From UHGV virus genome UHGV-0139389: a DNA stretch of 20,485 nt, one strand, 5' to 3'. Positions 4,706 to 20,179 of this stretch are shown one piece after another. Under the pieces are notes generated by a model. It saw only the letters and a program-made list of their open reading frames with translations, had not been told where the DNA came from and did not search any database. Each line of letters begins with the position of its first letter. Position 1 is the first letter of the stretch. The stretch comes from a virus. The position numbers and the translations under genes were made by a program.

Positions 4706-5254
4706 TTAAATCAGCGTTTCCAGAACTGTTTTCAATGATGACTTGGTTGTCTGATAAAAATGAGTAAATCCATTGTTATTATCGAATACCTGCATCATGA
4801 TATCATCTCCCTTGATTGGGTACACTCGGATATCATAGTGAAAACCATTAAAGACACAAGAACCACTACAGAATGCTCTAAAGTCATCCACTGAGATATA
4901 CTCTTCATGACCTGTGATTTTTATACAAACACCTTTACTCGGTCTCTTAGGGTTGATATCTTCCATCACAGACATACCCTGTCCACCAAGAGATACCATA
5001 GTGACCACTTTACGGTTCTTCTGTCTAAAGTACATCTTAACTTTCTGCAAAGTGTCTTCATAGAACGGATAAGACCTTTCTACAAAGATTCCTTCAAGTG
5101 GCTCTTTACCATTTTCAACTTCTCGGTTATGCCGTACTGCAAAGATAATTTGTTGGAACCAGTCAAAATTTTCTTCAGATAGTGCTTCCCGAACATCAGA
5201 CCAATCAAGGACTAGGTAGTTACCTTCAACTTCTTTTAAGTTATCTTTTTCCAT
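4706..5254 (-). CDS. hypothetical protein (182 aa from ATG; ORF-track TTG start at 5299 possible)
   Basis: ORF-track ORF begins with TTG and overlaps upstream gene by 32 nt; first ATG at 5254; start uncertain. Confidence 0.5.
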   Translation of the reverse strand: MEKDNLKEVEGNYLVLDWSDVREALSEENFDWFQQIIFAVRHNREVENGKEPLEGIFVERSYPFYEDTLQKVKMYFRQKNRKVVTMVSLGGQGMSVMEDINPKRPSKGVCIKITGHEEYISVDDFRAFCSGSCVFNGFHYDIRVYPIKGDDIMMQVFDNNNGFTHFYQTTKSSLKTVLETLI

Positions 5255-12959: not shown

Positions 12960-13000
12960 TTGACAAAGTACTTGACAAGGTGTAGGCTTATAAATACTTA
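12960..13000 (+). promoter_or_regulatory. Promoter-like region: two TTGACA boxes and TATAAATA
   Basis: TTGACA at 12960 and 12972, TATAAATA at 12988-12995; spacings not canonical so -10 assignment uncertain; divergent intergenic region. Confidence 0.3.
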
Positions 13001-13109
13001 GAAGATAACTTAAAAGGTTCCTCTAAAAAGGCTATTTAAACAGATATCTTTCTGGATATCTATCTTTTATCTTAAAAGCCTTTTAAGAGGTCTTATAAGA
13101 GGCATACCA

Positions 13110-13481
13110 ATGAAAAACAGAACAAACAAAGGCCAGTTTAAAAAAGGCCAGTCTGGAAACCCATCTGGAAGACCAAAAGGCTCTCGTAACAAAAGCTCAC
13201 TTGTAAAAGCTCAACTGACCATTGATAATTCTGCTGAGTTTGCTGCAAAGTTGTTTGAAGCAATTGTTACAAGGGACGCTGCTAAGCTTGCAGAGTTCGG
13301 GTTAAACACAGACGATGTAACCATCAAGAGCATGATTGAAGTCGGTAAAACTATCATGACCCACTCAGCAGGTGAGATGAAAGCAATTGCAGCAGACACT
13401 AAGAAGACTCCTGATAACGGTGGTCAGTCTCAGACAGATAACAAACCAACGTTCTCTGCTGTTGCAACCCTTAAAAAATAA
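13110..13481 (+). CDS. hypothetical protein with N-terminal GNPSGRPKG motif, 123 aa
   Basis: ATG at 13110, AAGAGG RBS; basic motif FKKGQSGNPSGRPKGSRNK. Confidence 0.65.
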   Translation: MKNRTNKGQFKKGQSGNPSGRPKGSRNKSSLVKAQLTIDNSAEFAAKLFEAIVTRDAAKLAEFGLNTDDVTIKSMIEVGKTIMTHSAGEMKAIAADTKKTPDNGGQSQTDNKPTFSAVATLKK

Positions 13482-13562
13482 TTTTAAAAGATGTTGACAG
13501 ACTCTATAAAGTTGCTCTAAAGTCTGTCACATCAAACAACAAATGAGAGAAGAGAGTAAAAT

Positions 13563-14978
13563 ATGAGCGAATTATTTAAACATGCGCACCTTCATGCAGG
13601 TCGAACTGAAAATGGTGCTGTAAACCATACTTCATCAATGTCTGCTCTTGTAGACTTTTACAAAGCTGCTGGTTCAAGCCGTAGCAATGTAGAAATCTTA
13701 CCAGACTTGTTCTACAAAGCTTTGCGTGAGGATGTTGATGTTGCAGTTCGTATTTTGCTTCATATGCGAGATGTACGAGAAGGTATGGGTGAGCGTAAAG
13801 CCTTCAGAACTGTTTTGCTTCAAGCAATTGAAGATAAAGTTTTAGAGCCTACACAGGTTCTTCGCATTATGGATAAGATTGCAGAACTTGGTCGTTTTGA
13901 TGACTTCAAAATCTTCGTGGGTACTTGTTTCGAGACAGATGCCTTCAAACATTTAGAAGCAGCATTACTAGACCCTGCAACAGCAGGTTTGGCGGCTAAG
14001 TGGTTACCACGAGTCAAACCACGTCATAAGCAGTTTGTAAAACGTTTCTGCAAGTTTGCCAACTTGAGCGAGAAAGAGTACCGCACACTGTTATCTGCAC
14101 TATCTGATACAGTTGAGCAAAAAATCTCTGCTAATGAGTTTGGCAAGATTGACTACAGTAAGGTTCCCTCACTTGCTGCTGCACGTTACCAAAAACTGTT
14201 TAACCGTAAGGATGGAGAACGTTACAAAGCTTACATTGAGTCCTTATCAAAAGGTGAGGCTAAGATTAATGCTGGTGCTGTTTACCCATACGATGTGATT
14301 AAATCTGTCAAGCATGGTAATGCAGATGTTGCTAATGAGCAGTGGAAAGCACTACCAAACTGGATGGCAGAAGGTGAAAACATCTTGTGTATGTCTGATG
14401 TATCAAGTTCAATGTCTTGGGTGAATTTTGGCTCCATTACTGCTCTGGATATTGGTGTATCACTTGCCTTGTATGTAGCAGAACGCAATACAGGTTGCTT
14501 TAAGAATGAGTTGATGGTTTATTCAACAAACCCTCACTTCATCGAACTGAGTGGTGATTTACGAAACCGTCATCGTCAGGTGATGCGACACGTTGAATAT
14601 GGCTCAACTAACTTACAAGCAGCTTTTGACCGCATTCTTGAGACAGGCAAAAGAAACAACTTGACTCAGAAAGATATGCCAAGTAAGCTTATCATCTTCT
14701 CCGATATGGAGTTTAATCAGGTTGATGGGGCTAACGGTCGTACAAACTTTGAAGCAATTCAGAGTAAGTACAAAAAAGCTGGATATGAGATGCCACAACT
14801 GGTATTCTGGTACTTAGCAAACCGTAATGGTACTTGCGAAGTATCTGTTAAGGATAACGGTGTAGCAATGGTATCAGGGTTCTCTCCAGCCACTTTAAAA
14901 GCTCTGCTTGGTGGTGAGAAGTTTGACCCAATCAGTGTAATGCTCAAAGCAGTAATGATTGACCGTTATATCTGGTAA
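13563..14978 (+). CDS. vWA-domain protein with helical N-terminal domain; candidate Ro60/TROVE-like (Rsr-like) RNA-binding protein
   Basis: MIDAS motif ILCMSDVSSSMS (DxSxS) and later FSDME strand = vWA fold; N-terminal ~280 aa helical with GMGERKAFR; resemblance to Ro60 (DVSxSM, FSDEM, MxSGF) is from memory, not a search. Confidence 0.75.
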   Translation: MSELFKHAHLHAGRTENGAVNHTSSMSALVDFYKAAGSSRSNVEILPDLFYKALREDVDVAVRILLHMRDVREGMGERKAFRTVLLQAIEDKVLEPTQVLRIMDKIAELGRFDDFKIFVGTCFETDAFKHLEAALLDPATAGLAAKWLPRVKPRHKQFVKRFCKFANLSEKEYRTLLSALSDTVEQKISANEFGKIDYSKVPSLAAARYQKLFNRKDGERYKAYIESLSKGEAKINAGAVYPYDVIKSVKHGNADVANEQWKALPNWMAEGENILCMSDVSSSMSWVNFGSITALDIGVSLALYVAERNTGCFKNELMVYSTNPHFIELSGDLRNRHRQVMRHVEYGSTNLQAAFDRILETGKRNNLTQKDMPSKLIIFSDMEFNQVDGANGRTNFEAIQSKYKKAGYEMPQLVFWYLANRNGTCEVSVKDNGVAMVSGFSPATLKALLGGEKFDPISVMLKAVMIDRYIW

Positions 14979-14996
14979 AAAGTTTTAAAAAGGGTA

Positions 14997-15025
14997 TTGA
15001 CAATGTGTTTGATACCCTTTAATAT
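14997..15025 (+). promoter_or_regulatory. sigma70-like promoter TTGACA-17 nt-TAATAT upstream of tRNA array
   Basis: Counted spacing; second weaker TTGACA at 15088. Confidence 0.45.
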
Positions 15026-15143
15026 GTTCTACATAGAAACGAAATGAGAGCTTTTCTAAGATACTGAAAAATATTTTAAAAAAGTTCTTGACAACCACTA
15101 AAAAATAATGTTAAAGTGGTTACATAGAGTTTGAAAAGTTTAT

Positions 15144-15220
15144 CTCTGTTTAGCTCAGCTTGGTAGAGCGTTCCGTTTGGGGCGGTAAGGCCGGAGGTTC
15201 AAGTCCTCCAACAGAGACCA
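15144..15220 (+). tRNA. tRNA-Pro (anticodon TGG)
   Basis: Acceptor CTCTGTT/AACAGAG (C1-G72), T-arm GGAGG-TTCAAGT-CCTCC, loop TTTGGGG, CCA encoded. Confidence 0.8.
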
Positions 15221-15227
15221 AATTAAT

Positions 15228-15305
15228 GTTCCAGTAGACAAAATGGTAAAGTCACCACTCTTTCAAAGTGGATATCTGAGGGTTCAAATCCCTTCTGGAA
15301 CGCCA
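15228..15305 (+). tRNA. tRNA-Glu (anticodon TTC)
   Basis: Acceptor GTTCCAG/CTGGAAC, anticodon stem CCACT/AGTGG, T-loop TTCAAAT, CCA. Confidence 0.8.
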
Positions 15306-15312
15306 GTTTTGA

Positions 15313-15385
15313 CAGAAGACCAATTACAGCAAACTTAATCTACTCATCTGAAAGTTAATCGGACAAAGAAGATATTTGGTCTGGT
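15313..15385 (+). ncRNA. Stem-closed spacer RNA element U1 (conserved 5' CAGAAGACC..TACAGCAA, 3' GGTCTGG)
   Basis: 5' AGACCAA pairs 3' TTGGTCT; member of 4-copy family with compensatory changes. Confidence 0.4.
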
Positions 15386-15395
15386 CATTAAGAAT

Positions 15396-15472
15396 TGCGG
15401 GTATAGAGAAAGGGCGTCTCACATGTCTCATTAGCATGGTATCGGCAGGTTCGACTCCTGCACCCGCCTCCA
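15396..15472 (+). tRNA. tRNA with anticodon CAT (Met or Ile-lysidine)
   Basis: T-arm GCAGG-TTCGACT-CCTGC, acceptor 6 bp with 1-72 mismatch, loop CTCATTA, CCA. Confidence 0.7.
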
Positions 15473-15478
15473 AATTTA

Positions 15479-15545
15479 CAGAAGACCGTTTACAGCAATA
15501 TTTATTAAATTTTTAGCGGAAAAATTGAAAGATACGGTCTGGTAA
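15479..15545 (+). ncRNA. Stem-closed spacer RNA element U2
   Basis: 5' AGACCGT pairs 3' ACGGTCT; conserved TACAGCAA after stem. Confidence 0.4.
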
Positions 15546-15555
15546 TACTAAACAT

Positions 15556-15632
15556 GGTTAGGAAGCACATAAGGTATGTGCGGTCGCCTGTTAAGCGAAT
15601 GGCACAGGGTTCGAATCCCTGACTAACCGCCA
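15556..15632 (+). tRNA. tRNA-Asn (anticodon GTT)
   Basis: T-arm CAGGG-TTCGAAT-CCCTG, acceptor GGTTAGG/ACTAACC (one mismatch), loop CTGTTAA, CCA. Confidence 0.75.
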
Positions 15633-15701
15633 AATTTAGGAGAGAAGCGATTGCTCACCGATTTGTAAGGTGCAAGTCCTTAGCCTGAATAGAAATCAAA
15701 T

Positions 15702-15789
15702 GTGTCGTTATCCCGTAGATGGTAGCGGTGGGGACTGTAAATCCCTTGTCATTGAGACTCGGTAGGTTCGACTCCTACACGGCACACCA
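15702..15789 (+). tRNA. tRNA-Tyr (anticodon GTA), long variable arm
   Basis: Acceptor GTGTCGT/ACGGCAC, loop CTGTAAA, T-arm GTAGG-TTCGACT-CCTAC, 85 nt + CCA. Confidence 0.8.
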
Positions 15790-15795
15790 AATAAA

Positions 15796-15873
15796 GGTTA
15801 TGTAGTTTAATCTGGTTAAAATACTCCCCTGTCACGGGAGATGATGAGGGTTCAAATCCCTTCATAACCGCCA
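15796..15873 (+). tRNA. tRNA-Asp (anticodon GTC)
   Basis: Acceptor GGTTATG/CATAACC, stem CTCCC/GGGAG, loop CTGTCAC, CCA. Confidence 0.85.
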
Positions 15874-15934
15874 ATTTTGAGAGGGCTATTTAGCCCCTCC
15901 CTTAAAGAGTTCTTACGAGTATTCTTTAAAGGAG

Positions 15935-16010
15935 CAGAAGACCAAATACAGCAAGAATGTATGAAATTTCAAGCCAATTCAATTTTGAAAATTTAAAACT
16001 TGGTCTGGCT
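15935..16010 (+). ncRNA. Stem-closed spacer RNA element U3
   Basis: 5' AGACCAA pairs 3' TTGGTCT; conserved 5' CAGAAGACCAAATACAGCAA. Confidence 0.4.
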
Positions 16011-16022
16011 CAACAAATTTAC

Positions 16023-16153
16023 AGAAGACCGTTTACAGCAAAACTTAAACAATCTATTTCTCCGGTAAAGAAAAGGCGAGGGTTCGATTCCTTCACTCGG
16101 CAGATGTCGAGTTGGTGTAATGGTAGCACTTAAGATGATAAACAACGGTCTGG
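16023..16153 (+). ncRNA. Candidate Y-RNA-like (YrlA-like) RNA: terminal stem enclosing tRNA-like module without anticodon arm
   Basis: 8-bp stem AGACCGTT(16026-16033)/AACGGTCT(16144-16151); inside: T-arm GAGGG-TTCGATT-CCTTC (16078-16094), capped acceptor-like hairpin ACTCGGC-AGAT-GTCGAGT (16095-16112), D-arm-like GTG-TAATGGTAG-CAC. Confidence 0.45.
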
Positions 16154-16160
16154 TAATTAC

Positions 16161-16292
16161 CTTTGTAGATAAGTTATTAAGCTTACTTGTGAGTATGCGA
16201 CCACAAAGGGTGAATGGGTAAATTCTAGATTTAAACCCAAAAAGGCACATCGCTACAGACCTTAAGCAAGTCTGGGTAGCTTATCTACAAAG
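16161..16292 (+). ncRNA. Structured element closed by perfect 13-bp long-range stem
   Basis: CTTTGTAGATAAG (16161-16173) is exact reverse complement of CTTATCTACAAAG (16280-16292); internal hairpin CAGAC-CTTAAGCAA-GTCTG. Confidence 0.4.
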
Positions 16293-16302
16293 ATAATTTA
16301 AT

Positions 16303-16378
16303 GGAAGTGTAGCAGAATGGTGATGCGGCAGACTTTTAATCTGACAGGCGATGGGTTCGAATCCCTCCACTTCTACCA
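16303..16378 (+). tRNA. tRNA-Lys (anticodon TTT)
   Basis: Acceptor GGAAGTG/CACTTCT (G1-U72), loop CTTTTAA, T-loop TTCGAAT with weak T-stem, CCA. Confidence 0.7.
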
Positions 16379-16382
16379 ATAT

Positions 16383-16459
16383 GGTTCAGTCGCAGATAAG
16401 GTAATGCAAGGGTCTCATAAGCCCTATGAATGTGGGTTCGATTCCCATCTGAACCTCCA
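16383..16459 (+). tRNA. tRNA with anticodon CAT (Met or Ile-lysidine), second copy
   Basis: Acceptor GGTTCAG/CTGAACC, stem AGGGT/GCCCT, loop CTCATAA, T-loop TTCGATT, CCA. Confidence 0.8.
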
Positions 16460-17001: not shown

Positions 17002-17084
17002 ATGGGACGATGTTAAGACTCTAAGGCATGAGCAACGGCTTCCAACACCGTTTCAAAGGGGTTCAACTCCTCCGTCCCATGCCA
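17002..17084 (+). tRNA. tRNA-like, probable anticodon CCA (Trp), non-canonical D region (80 nt)
   Basis: Exact 7-bp acceptor ATGGGAC/GTCCCAT, T-loop TTCAACT, loop TTCCAAC, CCA encoded; ~7 extra nt between acceptor and anticodon stem. Confidence 0.45.
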
Positions 17085-17097
17085 AAGTCTTATTAGG

Positions 17098-18196: not shown

Positions 18197-18439
18197 ATGC
18201 AAACATTAACAGTAGTTGAACATGAAAACTGTGAGAGTATTGAGTTTGTCAGGGTCATTGGTGTTGAACACCACATTTTCTTAAAAGTGGGATACTTATG
18301 TGACCCCGCTAGAGTAGAAAGATTTATACGTGATTGTTTTGGTGGTAGACAGCTGAAGAGTGTTATTTTTGAGACAGTTTTACCAGAAGGTTTAGAAACG
18401 AATAATAACATTTACCTCCTTACGAGGATTAGACAATGA
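18197..18439 (+). CDS. hypothetical protein, 80 aa, embedded in tRNA array
   Basis: ATG at 18197 with AAGGTG RBS; ATGA overlap with next ORF. Confidence 0.55.
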   Translation: MQTLTVVEHENCESIEFVRVIGVEHHIFLKVGYLCDPARVERFIRDCFGGRQLKSVIFETVLPEGLETNNNIYLLTRIRQ

Positions 18440-18993
18440 GATACTTAAAGTATGCTTCATGGATTTTCTTAGCTTTGTTAGAGCCATTTGCAGCAATCTT
18501 AGCAGTTATCTTAGCACCTTTTGTAGTTCCATTCTACAGTGAGAAGAAAGGACACTTACCTTTCGGGTTCAGATGGATGGAGACTTATGACAACCCAATT
18601 GATGGTGATGCAGGTCATATCAAACGATGGGCTAAGATTAGAAAGATTGGTAAGCTTGGTGTCTACATGCAGAGAGTTGGATGGCTCTGGAGAAACAAAG
18701 CTTATAACTTCTCTTACCATGTATTAGGAAGAGATGTAAAAGATGTTACTAAGTGGAAAGGTAATATCAACGTAAGTTCTAACCCTGAAGATAATCAGAC
18801 TGGTTATCTCCTAATGTGGAACAGTAATGCTTGGGGATTATTCGCTTTTGTGCCGTCAATCAAAATCTTTGGTAAACAATTTTACTGGAGAATTTATGTT
18901 GGGTGGAAACTTAAAAGTGTTGTCCCAGAAGAAAGAGCATTTTCAAGGGAAAGAGTTATGTTGGCATTCTTTATTCATCCACTAAGAAAGTAA
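18436..18993 (+). CDS. hypothetical membrane protein, 185 aa (N-terminal TM helix)
   Basis: ATG at 18436, GAGGA RBS; hydrophobic N-terminus WIFLALLEPFAAILAVILAPFVVPF. Confidence 0.6.
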   Translation: MRYLKYASWIFLALLEPFAAILAVILAPFVVPFYSEKKGHLPFGFRWMETYDNPIDGDAGHIKRWAKIRKIGKLGVYMQRVGWLWRNKAYNFSYHVLGRDVKDVTKWKGNINVSSNPEDNQTGYLLMWNSNAWGLFAFVPSIKIFGKQFYWRIYVGWKLKSVVPEERAFSRERVMLAFFIHPLRK

Positions 18994-19352: not shown

Positions 19353-19428
19353 AGTCCAAGTAGCTTATATGGTTAAAGCGCGTGTCTGAAAAACATGAGA
19401 AGAGGGTTCAAATCCCACTGGACTACCA
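19353..19428 (+). tRNA. tRNA-Phe (anticodon GAA), boundaries +/-2 nt
   Basis: D-arm GCTT-ATATGGTTA-AAGC, stem CGTGT/ACATG, loop CTGAAAA, T-loop TTCAAAT; acceptor register ambiguous. Confidence 0.65.
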
Positions 19429-19444
19429 ATTTCAAAGGTGCTTA

Positions 19445-20179
19445 ATGAAAGAGATGACAGAACAAGGTAAGGAGATTTTCAATCTCTTAAAAACCGGTAA
19501 AGGGTTTTCTAACCCCCTTATTACTGGTGCAGCAGTTCTCGGTGGAACCGTAGCTGCCTCTACATCACTTGTAAGCTCTATTAGCTCTGTATCAGACCCT
19601 ACAGTAAAGGATAAGCTTGTTGCTGCTGGACTTACAACAGTTCTGCTTAACAGCTTTACCACGAGTCTGACAAGCACTACATCAACTACCAAAACACTAA
19701 CAGATTACGGTCAAAAGTCCATTGATGAGTTTTCATCACGTATGCAGGTAGCAAAAGGTTACTCTAATGTTATGGGTGCAGCAGGTGAACAAGTTGGCTG
19801 TACACCATTTAGTGGTATTATGGGTGTTGCTACAGAGTATGGTCAAAAAGCTATTGATACGATTAACAGTGCACTAGATAGTGTTAATGGTGTGTTAAGT
19901 GACTTACAAGATGCTATTGACAAAGGTCTTGATACTATTTCTGATTTAGCTGAGCAAGCTGTTAGTAAGATTAATGAAGGTATTTCAAAAATTACAGCTT
20001 ATGCAGATGAAGTTGTGCAGATGATTGAAGAAGAAGCTGCTCTTATTGCAGAGTACCTTAAAACGAATATCAATGGGTTCTTAGCAGGTATCTTACCAGA
20101 CTGGTTTGATGATGCTTGTAAAACTGGTGTAATTGACACTATTGCAACACCAGAAATGAAGAACGCATTACAGAAATAA
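19445..20179 (+). CDS. hypothetical protein, 244 aa, Ser/Thr-rich segment (start trimmed from 19382)
   Basis: ORF-track start 19382 lies inside tRNA-Phe; first ATG after the tRNA is 19445 with AGGTG upstream. Confidence 0.6.
   Translation: MKEMTEQGKEIFNLLKTGKGFSNPLITGAAVLGGTVAASTSLVSSISSVSDPTVKDKLVAAGLTTVLLNSFTTSLTSTTSTTKTLTDYGQKSIDEFSSRMQVAKGYSNVMGAAGEQVGCTPFSGIMGVATEYGQKAIDTINSALDSVNGVLSDLQDAIDKGLDTISDLAEQAVSKINEGISKITAYADEVVQMIEEEAALIAEYLKTNINGFLAGILPDWFDDACKTGVIDTIATPEMKNALQK

Follow-up and report, generated by a model that had tools for sequence, protein, structure and literature searches.

The window, by which we mean the whole 20,485-nucleotide stretch of viral genome UHGV-0139389 that was analysed, encodes a Ro60-like protein and, downstream of it, a tRNA operon in which four small RNA modules are embedded. 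The modules were identified by sequence, fold and motif search; their starts lie 332 to 1041 nt past the stop codon of the protein gene, all on the + strand.

13563..14978, +, gene for the Ro60-like protein (471 aa), with an N-terminal helical-repeat domain (Pfam DUF2828) and a C-terminal vWA domain with complete MIDAS (Pfam DUF7788)
14997..15025, +, sigma-70-like promoter match TTGACA-17-TAATAT just past the gene's stop codon (consensus scan, 10/12 positions; pattern match only)
15088..15117, +, second sigma-70-like promoter match TTGACA-18-TAAAGT with extended -10 TG (consensus scan, 10/12; pattern match only)
15310..15387, +, handle RNA module 1: outer helix TGAC/GTCA, inner helix AGACCAA/TTGGTCT, junction U-UACAGCAA, 3' G, short variable hairpin
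15476..15545, +, handle RNA module 2: outer helix TTAC/GTAA, inner helix AGACCGT/ACGGTCT, junction U-UACAGCAA, 3' G
15932..16011, +, handle RNA module 3: outer helix GAGC/GCTC, inner helix AGACCAA/TTGGTCT, junction A-UACAGCAA, 3' G
16019..16156, +, handle RNA module 4: outer helix TTAC/GTAA; defined by covariance model (CM), fold and covariation

Module 1 lies between tRNA-Glu and tRNA-Met and module 2 between tRNA-Met and tRNA-Asn, each placed between the 3' CCA end of one tRNA and the RNase P site of the next. The second promoter match is found 27 nt upstream of the first tRNA. Promoter-like matches are no more numerous in this region than expected from shuffled sequence, and the match at 14997..15025 is, by its pattern, a candidate start of the tRNA/small-RNA operon.

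A Ro60 fold in a sequence family distinct from TROVE

Is the protein a Ro60? An earlier note on this DNA had proposed a Ro60-like protein (TROVE plus vWA). The open reading frame on which it relied, 13563-14978 (+) with a product of 471 aa, is present as described, and so is the MIDAS motif, ILCMSDVSSSMS (residues 274-285) followed by FSDME (residues 379-383). The residues of the DxSxS...T...D signature (D279, S281, S283, T349 and D381) are invariant among 36 homologues with identity down to 41%. At the sequence level, the TROVE part of the proposal did not hold. Pfam TROVE gives no match to the window protein at E<=1 and none to the 36 family members at E<=10, while the positive control Bxz1 gp220 matches at 9e-50; the earlier note had named a lack of TROVE similarity beforehand as grounds for giving up its assignment, and by Pfam this is formally the outcome. 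Nor did an HMMER profile find Ro60 among PDB sequences. By Pfam the protein belongs to the alternative that had also been named, a DUF2828-type vWA family: it matches PF25043 (DUF7788) with 148.9 bits and PF11443 (DUF2828) with 105.5 bits, both above the Pfam thresholds, and PHROG 850 with E 8e-184.

The Ro60 part of the proposal stands at the level of the fold. The best 11 Foldseek matches of the window protein are all Ro60/TROVE, and the protein is predicted to form a ring of helical (HEAT-like) repeats closed by the vWA domain. An hhalign comparison with the TROVE protein Bxz1 gp220 aligns 86 columns (prob 61%, E 8e-5), including the hPxxV helix and the DVSGSM motif. Pfam vWA_Ro60 (PF25045) weakly matches 6 of the 36 members, with a best E of 9e-4, and has no match in the window protein itself. 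With its Ro60-fold ring the protein is a distant relative of Ro60 in structure, and its DUF2828+DUF7788 sequence family is distinct from TROVE.

Four RNA modules with a common handle

The element that had drawn attention to this locus, module 4, is not alone: the window has four copies of its terminal handle, modules 1-3 having been missed before. The 5' handle motif AGAAGACC-N3-TACAGCAA is found 4 times, versus 0.27 expected. Common to the four modules are a terminal helix of 8 bp starting with A-G, a single-stranded U-W-CAGCAA junction on its 5' side, reading (U/A)UACAGCAA in the window, and, behind the 3' strand, a G that does not vary; in the window phage a 4-bp outer helix is added. The modules fold alike, with compensatory differences between copies in both helices. 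Across 35 modules, the first helix position is G in 29/35 and pairs with C, which is followed by U in 28/35 and by G in 35/35; within CAGCAA the C, G and C never vary. A covariance model, R1, built from distant relatives, recovers module 1 (22.1 bits, E 0.007), module 2 (24.6 bits, E 0.002) and module 3 (19.4 bits, E 0.025; E values within the window). The interior of module 3 is almost invariant in the phages Moogle and SUSP2.

Inside its handle, module 4 carries a permuted tRNA-like domain of the YrlA type, with the following parts.

16026-16033 / 16144-16151, +, inner helix AGACCGTT / AACGGTCT, the terminal stem
16034-16041, +, junction UACAGCAA, which together with the 3' G at 16152 flanks the tRNA-like domain
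16044-16048 / 16130-16134, +, 5-bp 'anticodon-stem-like' helix CUUAA / UUAAG closing a four-way junction (MFE and centroid folds)
16057..16073, +, variable-arm-like hairpin UUUCU-CCGGUAA-AGAAA (MFE and centroid folds)
16078..16094, +, T arm with canonical T loop, GAGGG-UUCGAUU-CCUUC (sequence, fold, relatives)
16095..16112, +, acceptor-stem-like 7-bp hairpin ACUCGGC-AGAU-GUCGAGU with a tetraloop (sequence, fold, covariation)
16113..16129, +, U8-like UG, then D arm with D-loop GG, GUG-UAAUGGUAG-CAC (sequence, fold)

The terminal 8-bp stem, T arm, closed acceptor-like hairpin and D arm (GTG-TAATGGTAG-CAC in the DNA, 16115-16129) all lie where the earlier note had placed them, and the MFE fold gives the same four-way arrangement. 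Their order and fold are borne out, and chance does not account for the element: R1 matches 16022-16155 with 74.8 bits (E 3e-13 within the window). The model has 35 matches in 777 kb, all 35 on the gene strand. The Rfam tRNA model aligns to the variable-arm-like hairpin and T arm with 18.8 bits.

Single-sequence folding energies of the modules (z -1.0 to -2.05) are by themselves weak evidence, and the case rests on comparative data. In the pair counts, 89.6% are paired versus 36-47% in slid controls, and covariation reaches 0.456 versus at most 0.085; none of 500 shuffles attained the observed values. Among relatives of module 4, all 7 handle pairs change on both sides, as do all 7 pairs of the acceptor hairpin (92% of cells paired), where Moogle (CCCUUC/GAAGGG) and SUSP2 (CACG/CGUG) supply compensatory changes. 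The T stem is 97% paired, with changes on both sides in 3 of its 5 pairs, and the D stem is more weakly paired (62% of cells). Near-invariant columns in alignment A3 correspond to the U8-like U and the D-loop GG. The structure of module 4 is backed by the covariance model and by strong covariation in ~20 distant loci.

Linkage of the handle to the gene

Does the handle accompany the gene elsewhere? In 75 viral loci whose protein is 39-48% identical, the handle motif with its closing helix occurs 111 times on the gene strand, 14 times on the opposite strand and 26 times in shuffled downstream sequence. Within 600 nt of the gene lie 71 of the 111, and 51 of the 75 loci have at least one module within 2 kb. 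A second, independent set, of 80 assembly loci from bacteria and archaea, gave counts of 122 vs 23, with the handle in 65 loci. It is found near the homologous gene in all cultured phages examined, and modules adjoin the gene in Mycobacterium phage Crossroads, Listeria LMSP-25, Staphylococcus 6ec, Campylobacter CPX, Sinorhizobium phiM7, Yersinia P778, Moogle and SUSP2. The linkage is tight and strand-specific over very distant phages and bacteria. LMSP-25 also has, 1.3 kb downstream, an RtcB-type 'tRNA splicing ligase', an echo of the bacterial order rsr-yrlBA-rtcBA.

From these data we consider it likely that the locus encodes a divergent Ro60-type ribonucleoprotein system in a Felixounavirus (Felix O1-type phage), whose RNAs are set free from the tRNA operon; that the protein binds the RNAs, that these are processed and what they do biologically is what we infer. 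The four small RNAs just downstream of the gene, inside the tRNA operon, would be the likely partners of the Ro60-like ring. By analogy with Ro60 and its Y RNAs, the protein would recognise the handle, and the variable interior of each module would be its 'cargo'. That of module 4 would be a mimic of the tRNA elbow (T arm, closed acceptor hairpin, D arm), which could recruit or decoy tRNA-recognising enzymes, and during infection the particle might serve RNA surveillance or repair, or else counter-defence. Given where modules 1 and 2 sit, between CCA ends and RNase P sites, the RNAs may be released as by-products of tRNA maturation.

That same position also suits a different reading, namely that the handle hairpins act in cis, as processing or spacer elements of tRNA operons (guides for RNase III/E/P, for example), not specifically related to the Ro-like protein, module 4 being a degenerate tRNA or an intermediate of processing. 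The tRNA spacers are exactly where modules 1 and 2 are placed, module 4 lies within the tRNA array, modules adjoin tRNAs in many loci, and some handles even enclose a near-complete tRNA (4734-4833 in locus L039, 4759-4852 in L045). Yet any tRNA within +/-5 kb is found in only 27 of 76 related viral loci scanned, fewer than the 51 of 75 with a module within 2 kb. Modules abut the gene where there is no tRNA array, as in Staphylococcus 6ec, Mycobacterium phage Crossroads and most of the bacterial-assembly loci, and it is the gene that the motif tracks in position, as the 71 of 111 within 600 nt attest. We regard the cis-element reading as unlikely.

If the gene is what the motif follows, could the handles be protein-binding mRNA operators, autoregulating the Ro-like gene or a neighbouring operon, and not free-standing small RNAs? 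Gene-strand modules do lie immediately beside the gene, upstream in Listeria, Campylobacter and most bacterial loci, downstream in Staphylococcus and Mycobacterium, and often in tandem. In the window, however, they lie 330-1040 nt past the stop codon, beyond two promoter-like sites and several tRNAs; among the cargos are tRNA mimics and structured RNAs of 160-250 nt, both conserved; and the look-alike Class I RNAs of Dictyostelium are abundant free RNAs. This explanation seems to us slightly less plausible still. Least probable of all is a circularly permuted tRNA gene or pseudo-tRNA at module 4, beside an unrelated vWA protein: the arm order (T arm, acceptor, D arm) is that of a permuted tRNA, and ARAGORN and Rfam call fragments only, but the element does not have the complete set of arms, as it is without an anticodon arm, its acceptor hairpin is closed by a tetraloop, has no CCA and can be wholly absent in relatives (L016, L029), its ends form the handle common to non-tRNA modules, and it is kept with covariation beside the same gene in distant phages.

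Comparison with known Ro-type systems and with Dictyostelium Class I RNAs

A Ro-like character of this protein family has been recognised before. The SEA-PHAGES annotation is 'Ro-like RNA-binding protein', and the PhageMaP preprint noted that Bas63 gp130 resembles Ro60, guessed at Y RNAs, and reported that gp130 alone, from a plasmid or inserted into T7, countered the ppl defence (bioRxiv 10.1101/2024.10.10.617714); the phage RNAs are thus not required for the ppl phenotype. Judged from its description, gp130 is probably the orthologue of the window protein. No RNA partner was identified in the Bas63 or SEA-PHAGES work, and the PhageMaP authors pointed at annotated tRNA genes, whereas our candidates lie in unannotated spacers.

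Bacterial and phage Ro60 (Rsr) proteins are accompanied by YrlA and YrlB Y RNAs (Chen et al. 2014, PMC4201824), and Thermus phage phiLo encodes a Ro60-Yrl1/2 system (PMC12135203). Like these, the window has a two-domain ring fold with MIDAS and RNAs encoded on the same strand within ~1 kb, all four modules falling within 4 kb of the gene. As in YrlA, module 4 holds a (V arm), T arm, closed acceptor stem-loop and D arm, in that order, inside a stem formed by its ends, and as with YrlB, shorter RNAs without a tRNA-like domain accompany it. Unlike Ro60, the window protein is not detectable as TROVE by sequence. Unlike YrlA, whose motif is GNCGAAN0-1G / CGAA, the modules have U-W-CAGCAA plus the 3' G as their presumed protein-binding handle. 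No GNCGAAN0-1G (CGAA) motif is present near the 5' end of module 4, where the strand reads CAGAAGACCGUUUACAGCAA, and the canonical Ro-binding motif (GGUCCGA / GNCGAAG / CGAA) is absent from the window element.

The earlier suggestion of a Ro60-Y RNA module divides: the protein does have the Ro60 fold, and its gene is followed ~1 kb downstream, on the same strand, by a tRNA mimic of YrlA type, but Pfam TROVE and Rfam Y RNA give no match. Rfam YrlA (RF02553; gathering threshold 69 bits) yields nothing on 15850-16320 at E<=10, nor does any other Y RNA model, which is formally the result that the earlier note had said would count against it. The same library finds YrlA beside the true TROVE gene of phage Bxz1, gp220 (32.5 bits), and relatives of module 4 give sub-threshold YrlA matches of 37.7 bits (L106) and 21.6 bits (Crossroads). 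In Bxz1 the Y RNAs carry GGCCGAGAG and GGCCGAAGG, a GNCGA(A/G) handle, and R1 matches only their tRNA-like part. Handle specificity tracks protein family, GNCGA(A/G) going with TROVE in Bxz1 and U-W-CAGCAA with the present family. The survey of Chen et al. covered only genomes annotated with TROVE proteins, so the DUF2828+DUF7788 family lay outside it (PMC4201824).

A second likeness comes from a eukaryote. The Class I RNAs of Dictyostelium were found in 2004 and are developmentally regulated. As in the handle modules, the length is ~60 nt, the 5' and 3' ends are joined by a short stem starting with G, the interior is variable and A/U-rich with a run of A ahead of the 3' strand, and the 3' tail reads C-U-G(-U); the pairing of an invariant first G with the C of the 3' CUG(U), a Class I feature, is seen in the handle consensus. 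Adjacent to the 5' strand of the stem, both have a single-stranded motif, CCUUACAGCAA in Class I vs N-U-U/A-A/U-CAGCAA in the modules, and the U, C, C, A and A at positions 3, 6, 9, 10 and 11 of the 11-nt Class I motif are present in the window modules. When 7 Class I RNAs are aligned jointly with 13 phage or bacterial modules, CAGCAA does not vary. The Rfam model Dicty_Class_I_RNA (RF01414) aligns over its full length (1-56) to five modules from three phage lineages with 16-23 bits (module 1, 17.8; module 2, 20.1, E 0.17; Listeria phage, 23.1; Crossroads, 17.6 and 16.2), none reaching the gathering threshold of 41.5 bits.

Class I RNAs are reported to be unique to Dictyostelia, to be abundant free RNAs of ~60 nt (42-65 nt) with their own upstream DUSE promoter, and to bind the RRM protein Rnp1A (Kjellin et al. 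2021, PMC7919456). Core lengths of the handle RNAs are 58-68 nt. Unlike the modules, Class I RNAs are eukaryotic genes with promoters of their own (the DUSE element, which as a eukaryotic element has no bearing on a phage), and no link to a Ro-like protein has been described. We tentatively propose, as a possibility that we rate somewhat less likely than not, that the dictyostelid Class I RNAs and the RNAs with a CAGCAA handle in phages and bacteria belong to one RNA type and are the 'Y RNAs' cognate to the DUF2828 branch of the Ro60 superfamily. If so, Class I RNAs would act in a Ro-like RNP, and the phage version would work as a platform of modular design, a single handle serving to load tRNA-elbow mimics, acceptor-less tRNAs or larger structured RNAs onto a Ro-like ring as alternative cargos.

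Handle RNAs in the tRNA array

The window comes from a Felixounavirus, a myovirus of the Felix O1-like type. Across 13000-16400 its sequence is 97.7% identical to that of Escherichia phage garuso, and the query is covered by 247 phage records. ARAGORN detects 26 tRNA genes in the window, all on the + strand and starting at 15144. The RNA element that the earlier note had described in this array was recovered with all of its features in place: an 8-bp terminal helix (16026-16033/16144-16151) frames, besides a variable-arm-like hairpin, the T arm, the closed 7-bp hairpin resembling an acceptor stem and the D arm. This element is one of four handle RNAs in the window, the handle being a terminal helix starting with G, a single-stranded U-W-CAGCAA and a 3' C-U-G.

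Ro-like gene and handle RNAs of the window
13563-14978 (+): Ro-like gene, 471 aa
15310-15387 (+): module 1, filling the spacer between tRNA-Glu and tRNA-Met
15476-15545 (+): module 2, filling the spacer between tRNA-Met and tRNA-Asn
15932-16011 (+): module 3, after tRNA-Asp
16019-16156 (+): module 4, after tRNA-Asp; the element of the earlier note

The motif AGAAGACC-N3-TACAGCAA occurs at 15314, 15480, 15936 and 16023 (4 copies against 0.27 expected), and every copy has a downstream partner, N3'-GGTCTGG. In all four modules, which are identical in fold, a 4-bp outer helix is separated by an AGA/G internal loop from a 7-8-bp inner helix, after which UACAGCAA is single-stranded. Both helices vary in a compensatory manner, the outer one between TGAC/GTCA, TTAC/GTAA and GAGC/GCTC, the inner one between CAA/TTG and CGT/ACG. 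Only module 4 contains a tRNA-like domain. At gathering thresholds, Rfam reports nothing but tRNAs in the window and 12 related loci, and the handle-RNA spacers are unannotated in the RefSeq records of the close relatives Si3 and Mushroom, where the ORF is named "RNA-binding protein". A fifth candidate at 18481-18687 (GAGCCAT-TTGCAGCAA...ATGGCTC-TGG) was rejected: it lies inside a conserved ORF (PHROG 2143, E 9e-81), it scores just 11 bits with R1, our covariance model of tRNA-like modules, and the handle pattern has a real background rate.

Several further elements were observed in the same region. Directly after module 4, a 22-23-bp inverted repeat surrounds a branched interior of ~100 nt (16155-16298, +; MFE -44.3 kcal/mol, z -4.1; 0/200 shuffles fold as well). 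Its stem is kept in phages Moogle and SUSP2 with a compensatory change from GTAG/CTAC to GCAG/CTGC, its interior has diverged, and it has no Rfam match. A minus-strand ORF at 15993-16250, overlapping module 4 and the start of this element, is probably spurious. In an unannotated tRNA-like sequence at ~17003-17086 (+), called neither by ARAGORN nor by the Rfam tRNA model, acceptor strands ATGGGAC/GTCCCAT are followed by GCCA; its T arm reads GGGG-TTCAACT-CCTC, its anticodon loop apparently has 9 nt, and its D region is aberrant. The tRNA-Asn/tRNA-Tyr spacer (15635-15700, +) holds an orphan T-arm-like hairpin, AAGGTGCAAGTCCTT at 15667-15681, and the handle is absent there; several related GenBank records flag the tRNA-Tyr itself as pseudo. 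Two conserved protein genes reside in the tRNA array (18436-18993 and 19382-20179, +), one assigned to PHROG 2143, a family with no assigned function, the other to PHROG 2114, which is similar to the GTP-binding domain family PHROG 289 (2e-17). The Ro-like gene is immediately preceded, on its own strand, by a small PHROG 4114 gene (13110-13481, +; DUF5681 in RefSeq). Moogle, SUSP2 and P778-like phages have it in this place too, and the two genes may be expressed together.

Family and fold of the Ro-like protein

Is the protein encoded next to these RNAs a member of the TROVE family? The 471-aa ORF and its MIDAS motif are present as the earlier note had reported, with DxSxS (D279, S281, S283), T349 and D381; none of these five residues varies across 36 aligned homologues with identities down to 41%. 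Pfam assigns the window protein to DUF7788 (148.9 bits) and DUF2828 (105.5 bits), and PHROG 850, "RNA-binding protein", matches it at 8e-184. No Pfam match to TROVE was obtained for the window protein even at E<=1, nor for any of 36 family members at E<=10; the Ro60-type vWA model gave weak matches in 6 of the 36. Sequence searches of the PDB returned nothing with the window protein as single sequence and no Ro60 match with a HMMER family profile, so that kinship with Ro60 is visible only in structure and in a weak hhalign match. An AlphaFold2 model built from the family alignment is confident (pLDDT 89.1, pTM 0.89), and its best 11 Foldseek matches in the PDB are all Ro60/TROVE structures, aligned over the full length; the predicted fold is Ro60-like. 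As a control we used gp220 of Mycobacterium phage Bxz1, a clear TROVE + vWA_Ro60 protein, to which hhalign aligns the family with a probability of 61% (E 8e-5) across the pre-vWA helix and the MIDAS strand.

On the strength of the Pfam, Foldseek and hhalign results, the window protein is, as modeled, a structural relative of Ro60 and probably a distant evolutionary one, and judged by its sequence it lies outside the TROVE family. The earlier proposal of a Ro60-like TROVE + vWA protein therefore holds for the fold, not for the TROVE assignment, the family being DUF2828/DUF7788. Among 50,697 phage records, 710 contain a member; these include Felix O1-like, P100-like Listeria, Campylobacter, vibrio, staphylococcal and cluster L mycobacterial phages. 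Many bacterial assemblies encode members as well. DUF2828 proteins are found in eukaryotes too and are mentioned in plant papers. The label "Ro-like RNA binding protein" is already in use at SEA-PHAGES for mycobacteriophage homologues (33% identical).

Conservation, gene linkage and cargos

Of 80 retrieved viral loci with a relative of the protein, we scanned the 75 distant ones (39-48% identity) for W-N-C-M-G-C-A-A with a 7-bp closing helix, followed by G. The gene strand yielded 111 modules, compared to 14 on the opposite strand and 26 in shuffled downstream sequence; 71 of the 111 are no more than 600 nt away from the gene, upstream or downstream, and at least one module lies within 2 kb of the gene in 51 of the 75 loci. 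R1, derived from 17 tRNA-like modules, has 35 matches, every one on the gene strand, and scores the window element at 74.8 bits. Paired cells in its alignment amount to 89.6%, versus 36-47% with slid partners; the covariation score is 0.456, versus at most 0.085 in controls, and none of 500 shuffles reaches the observed values. Changes on both sides are seen for 7 of 7 handle pairs and 7 of 7 acceptor-hairpin pairs. The result was reproduced in 80 further loci, sampled independently from bacterial and archaeal assemblies (33-42% identity): 122 gene-strand modules were counted versus 23, they came from 65 of these loci, and most were located shortly before the gene. Modules adjoin the gene in every cultured phage examined (Crossroads, LMSP-25, 6ec, CPX, phiM7, P778, Moogle and SUSP2), and the acceptor-like hairpin of module 4 shows compensatory changes in Moogle and SUSP2. 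The handle RNAs are conserved and structured, and their linkage to the gene is strict.

The handle consensus reads 5' W-W-A-A-A-G-R-A-U-N-N-(U)-U-W-C-A-G-C-A-A-(A/U-rich) ... (A-run)-N-N-A-U-Y-C-U-G-W-U-A 3', and its invariant positions are the C, G and C of CAGCAA plus the G that follows the helix. Its cargos (L numbers denote retrieved loci) comprise short hairpins, permuted tRNA mimics, T and D arms alone (L016, L029), near-complete tRNAs in which the acceptor stem is missing (L039, L045) and several conserved RNA types of 160-250 nt. This arrangement, with variable effector modules on a common and putatively protein-binding stem, follows the logic of Y RNAs.

Some of these cargos merit separate description. 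At L039 4734-4833 and L045 4759-4852, the CAGCAA handle surrounds an unpermuted tRNA body with D, anticodon and T arms, called by ARAGORN as tRNA-Thr(tgt) and tRNA-Asn(att); the handle helix replaces the acceptor stem. Beside the Ro-like gene in uncultured viral contigs, the handle also frames no fewer than three other conserved types of RNA, 90-250 nt in length.

Further handle-framed RNAs
L071 4435-4673, L046 4652-4897, L053 4653-4899, L065 1891-2141
L009 3840-4064, L017 628-833, L027 4409-4659, L029 4066-4318
L009 4277-4369, L010 3134-3231, L012 150-279, L017 1266-1372, L027 4734-4828

Their common internal blocks include GGCAAGCAGAAAATAAAATAC, AAAGGTTCGAACGAGGGGTAAGGCC and CCTTTCTGGAGGGGAAAGCAAAAACTCGCC, and those in L071, L029, L010 and L012 match no Rfam family at gathering threshold. 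Other RNAs were noted in loci with the Ro-like gene. The tRNA region of Listeria phage LMSP-25 (L087 2428-2979) matches ROOL RNA at 88.5 bits (E 2e-16; slightly below the gathering score, 99.1), ~650 nt upstream of three handle modules and ~1 kb upstream of the Ro-like gene. A permuted tmRNA (L028 1293-1616, 71.7 bits) and a group I intron (L026 10696-10922, 71.5 bits) each share a contig with a Ro-like gene and handle RNAs. A 158-nt ncRNA expressed at a high level by Campylobacter phage NCTC12673 (PMC6024767) was considered as potential evidence of expression and set aside, as it has no handle and is not near the Ro-like gene.

Proposed function, and comparison with Y RNAs and Class I RNAs

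What might such RNAs do? In the mechanism we propose, tRNA-processing machinery would cut the handle RNAs from the tRNA operon transcript, the Ro-like protein would bind the handle, and the tRNA-elbow mimic could recruit or decoy tRNA-recognizing factors, in RNA surveillance or repair, or in counter-defence. Genomic context supports an RNA-repair theme, since LMSP-25 encodes an RtcB-type ligase 1.3 kb from the Ro-like gene and phage LeBron encodes a polynucleotide kinase and an RNA ligase together with a Ro-like homologue. A PhageMaP preprint (bioRxiv 10.1101/2024.10.10.617714) reports that gp130 of Bas63, from its description inferred to be the orthologue of the window ORF, counters ppl defence; it notes that gp130 resembles Ro60 and makes a guess at Y RNAs, and names no RNA for it. 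That gp130 alone, from plasmid or from T7, was enough counts against an obligatory role for the RNA. Specific candidate RNA partners can now be given for a protein with a genetically established anti-ppl activity.

Ro60-Y RNA particles in bacteria and phages have so far been tied to TROVE-annotated proteins only. The survey by Chen et al. 2014 (PMC4201824) was limited to genomes with such annotations, so the DUF2828 family fell outside that search. We found no published description of the handle RNAs in the literature on DUF2828, UCP015417, Ro-like proteins or Felixounavirus transcriptomes; the RNA components of this system were previously unrecognised.

A resemblance to Dictyostelium Class I RNA (RF01414) is likewise previously unreported. 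In small Rfam searches by E-value this was the only family other than tRNA and YrlA to resemble the short modules, with full-length matches (1-56) throughout, all below the gathering score of 41.5: 17.8 and 20.1 bits for window modules, 23.1 for LMSP-25, 17.6 and 16.2 for the GC-rich Crossroads. Class I RNAs are defined by five features (Kjellin et al. 2021, PMC7919456): a short stem formed by the two ends; a 5' G that never varies and pairs with the C of 3' CUGU; next to the stem, an 11-nt motif whose positions 3, 6, 9, 10 and 11 are fixed as U, C, C, A and A; an interior that varies; and a total of ~60 nt. The same paper reports them absent outside Dictyostelia and their mechanism as unknown. 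The Rfam consensus, GaUcuC-CUUACAGCAAUuaAAa...AAAAAcC..GagAuC-UG, almost coincides with the phage handle consensus, and in a joint alignment of Class I sequences (e.g. DdR-21, GUUGACCUUACAGCAA...GUCAACUG) with 13 phage and bacterial modules CAGCAA is invariant in 20 of 20. The only DVSGSM match among proteome sequences listed from the Kjellin supplement is an unrelated Ras-vWA protein. For RNAs studied for 20 years with no mechanism established, the handle match provides a testable hypothesis for a protein partner.

How does the system compare with Y RNAs proper? Rfam YrlA (RF02553) does not match the window element at E<=10, yet matches its relatives at 21.6-37.7 bits, and in the control, the Y RNA that lies upstream of Bxz1 gp220, it picks up the tRNA-like part (32.5 bits). 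The published GNCGA(A/G) motif is present in the Bxz1 RNAs, and R1 matches them in their tRNA-like part only. These match patterns indicate a tRNA-like cargo common to both systems and a handle specific to each protein family, as we would expect if the handle is the protein-binding site. The Ro60-Y RNA module suggested in the earlier note is right in kind and misassigned in family, with no TROVE match for the window protein and no Rfam YrlA match for the window element. The DUF2828-type system probably represents a variation on the Ro60-Y RNA theme; its handle is distinct and very widespread, and suggests that Ro60-type particles have a second and far larger branch with an RNA handle of its own.
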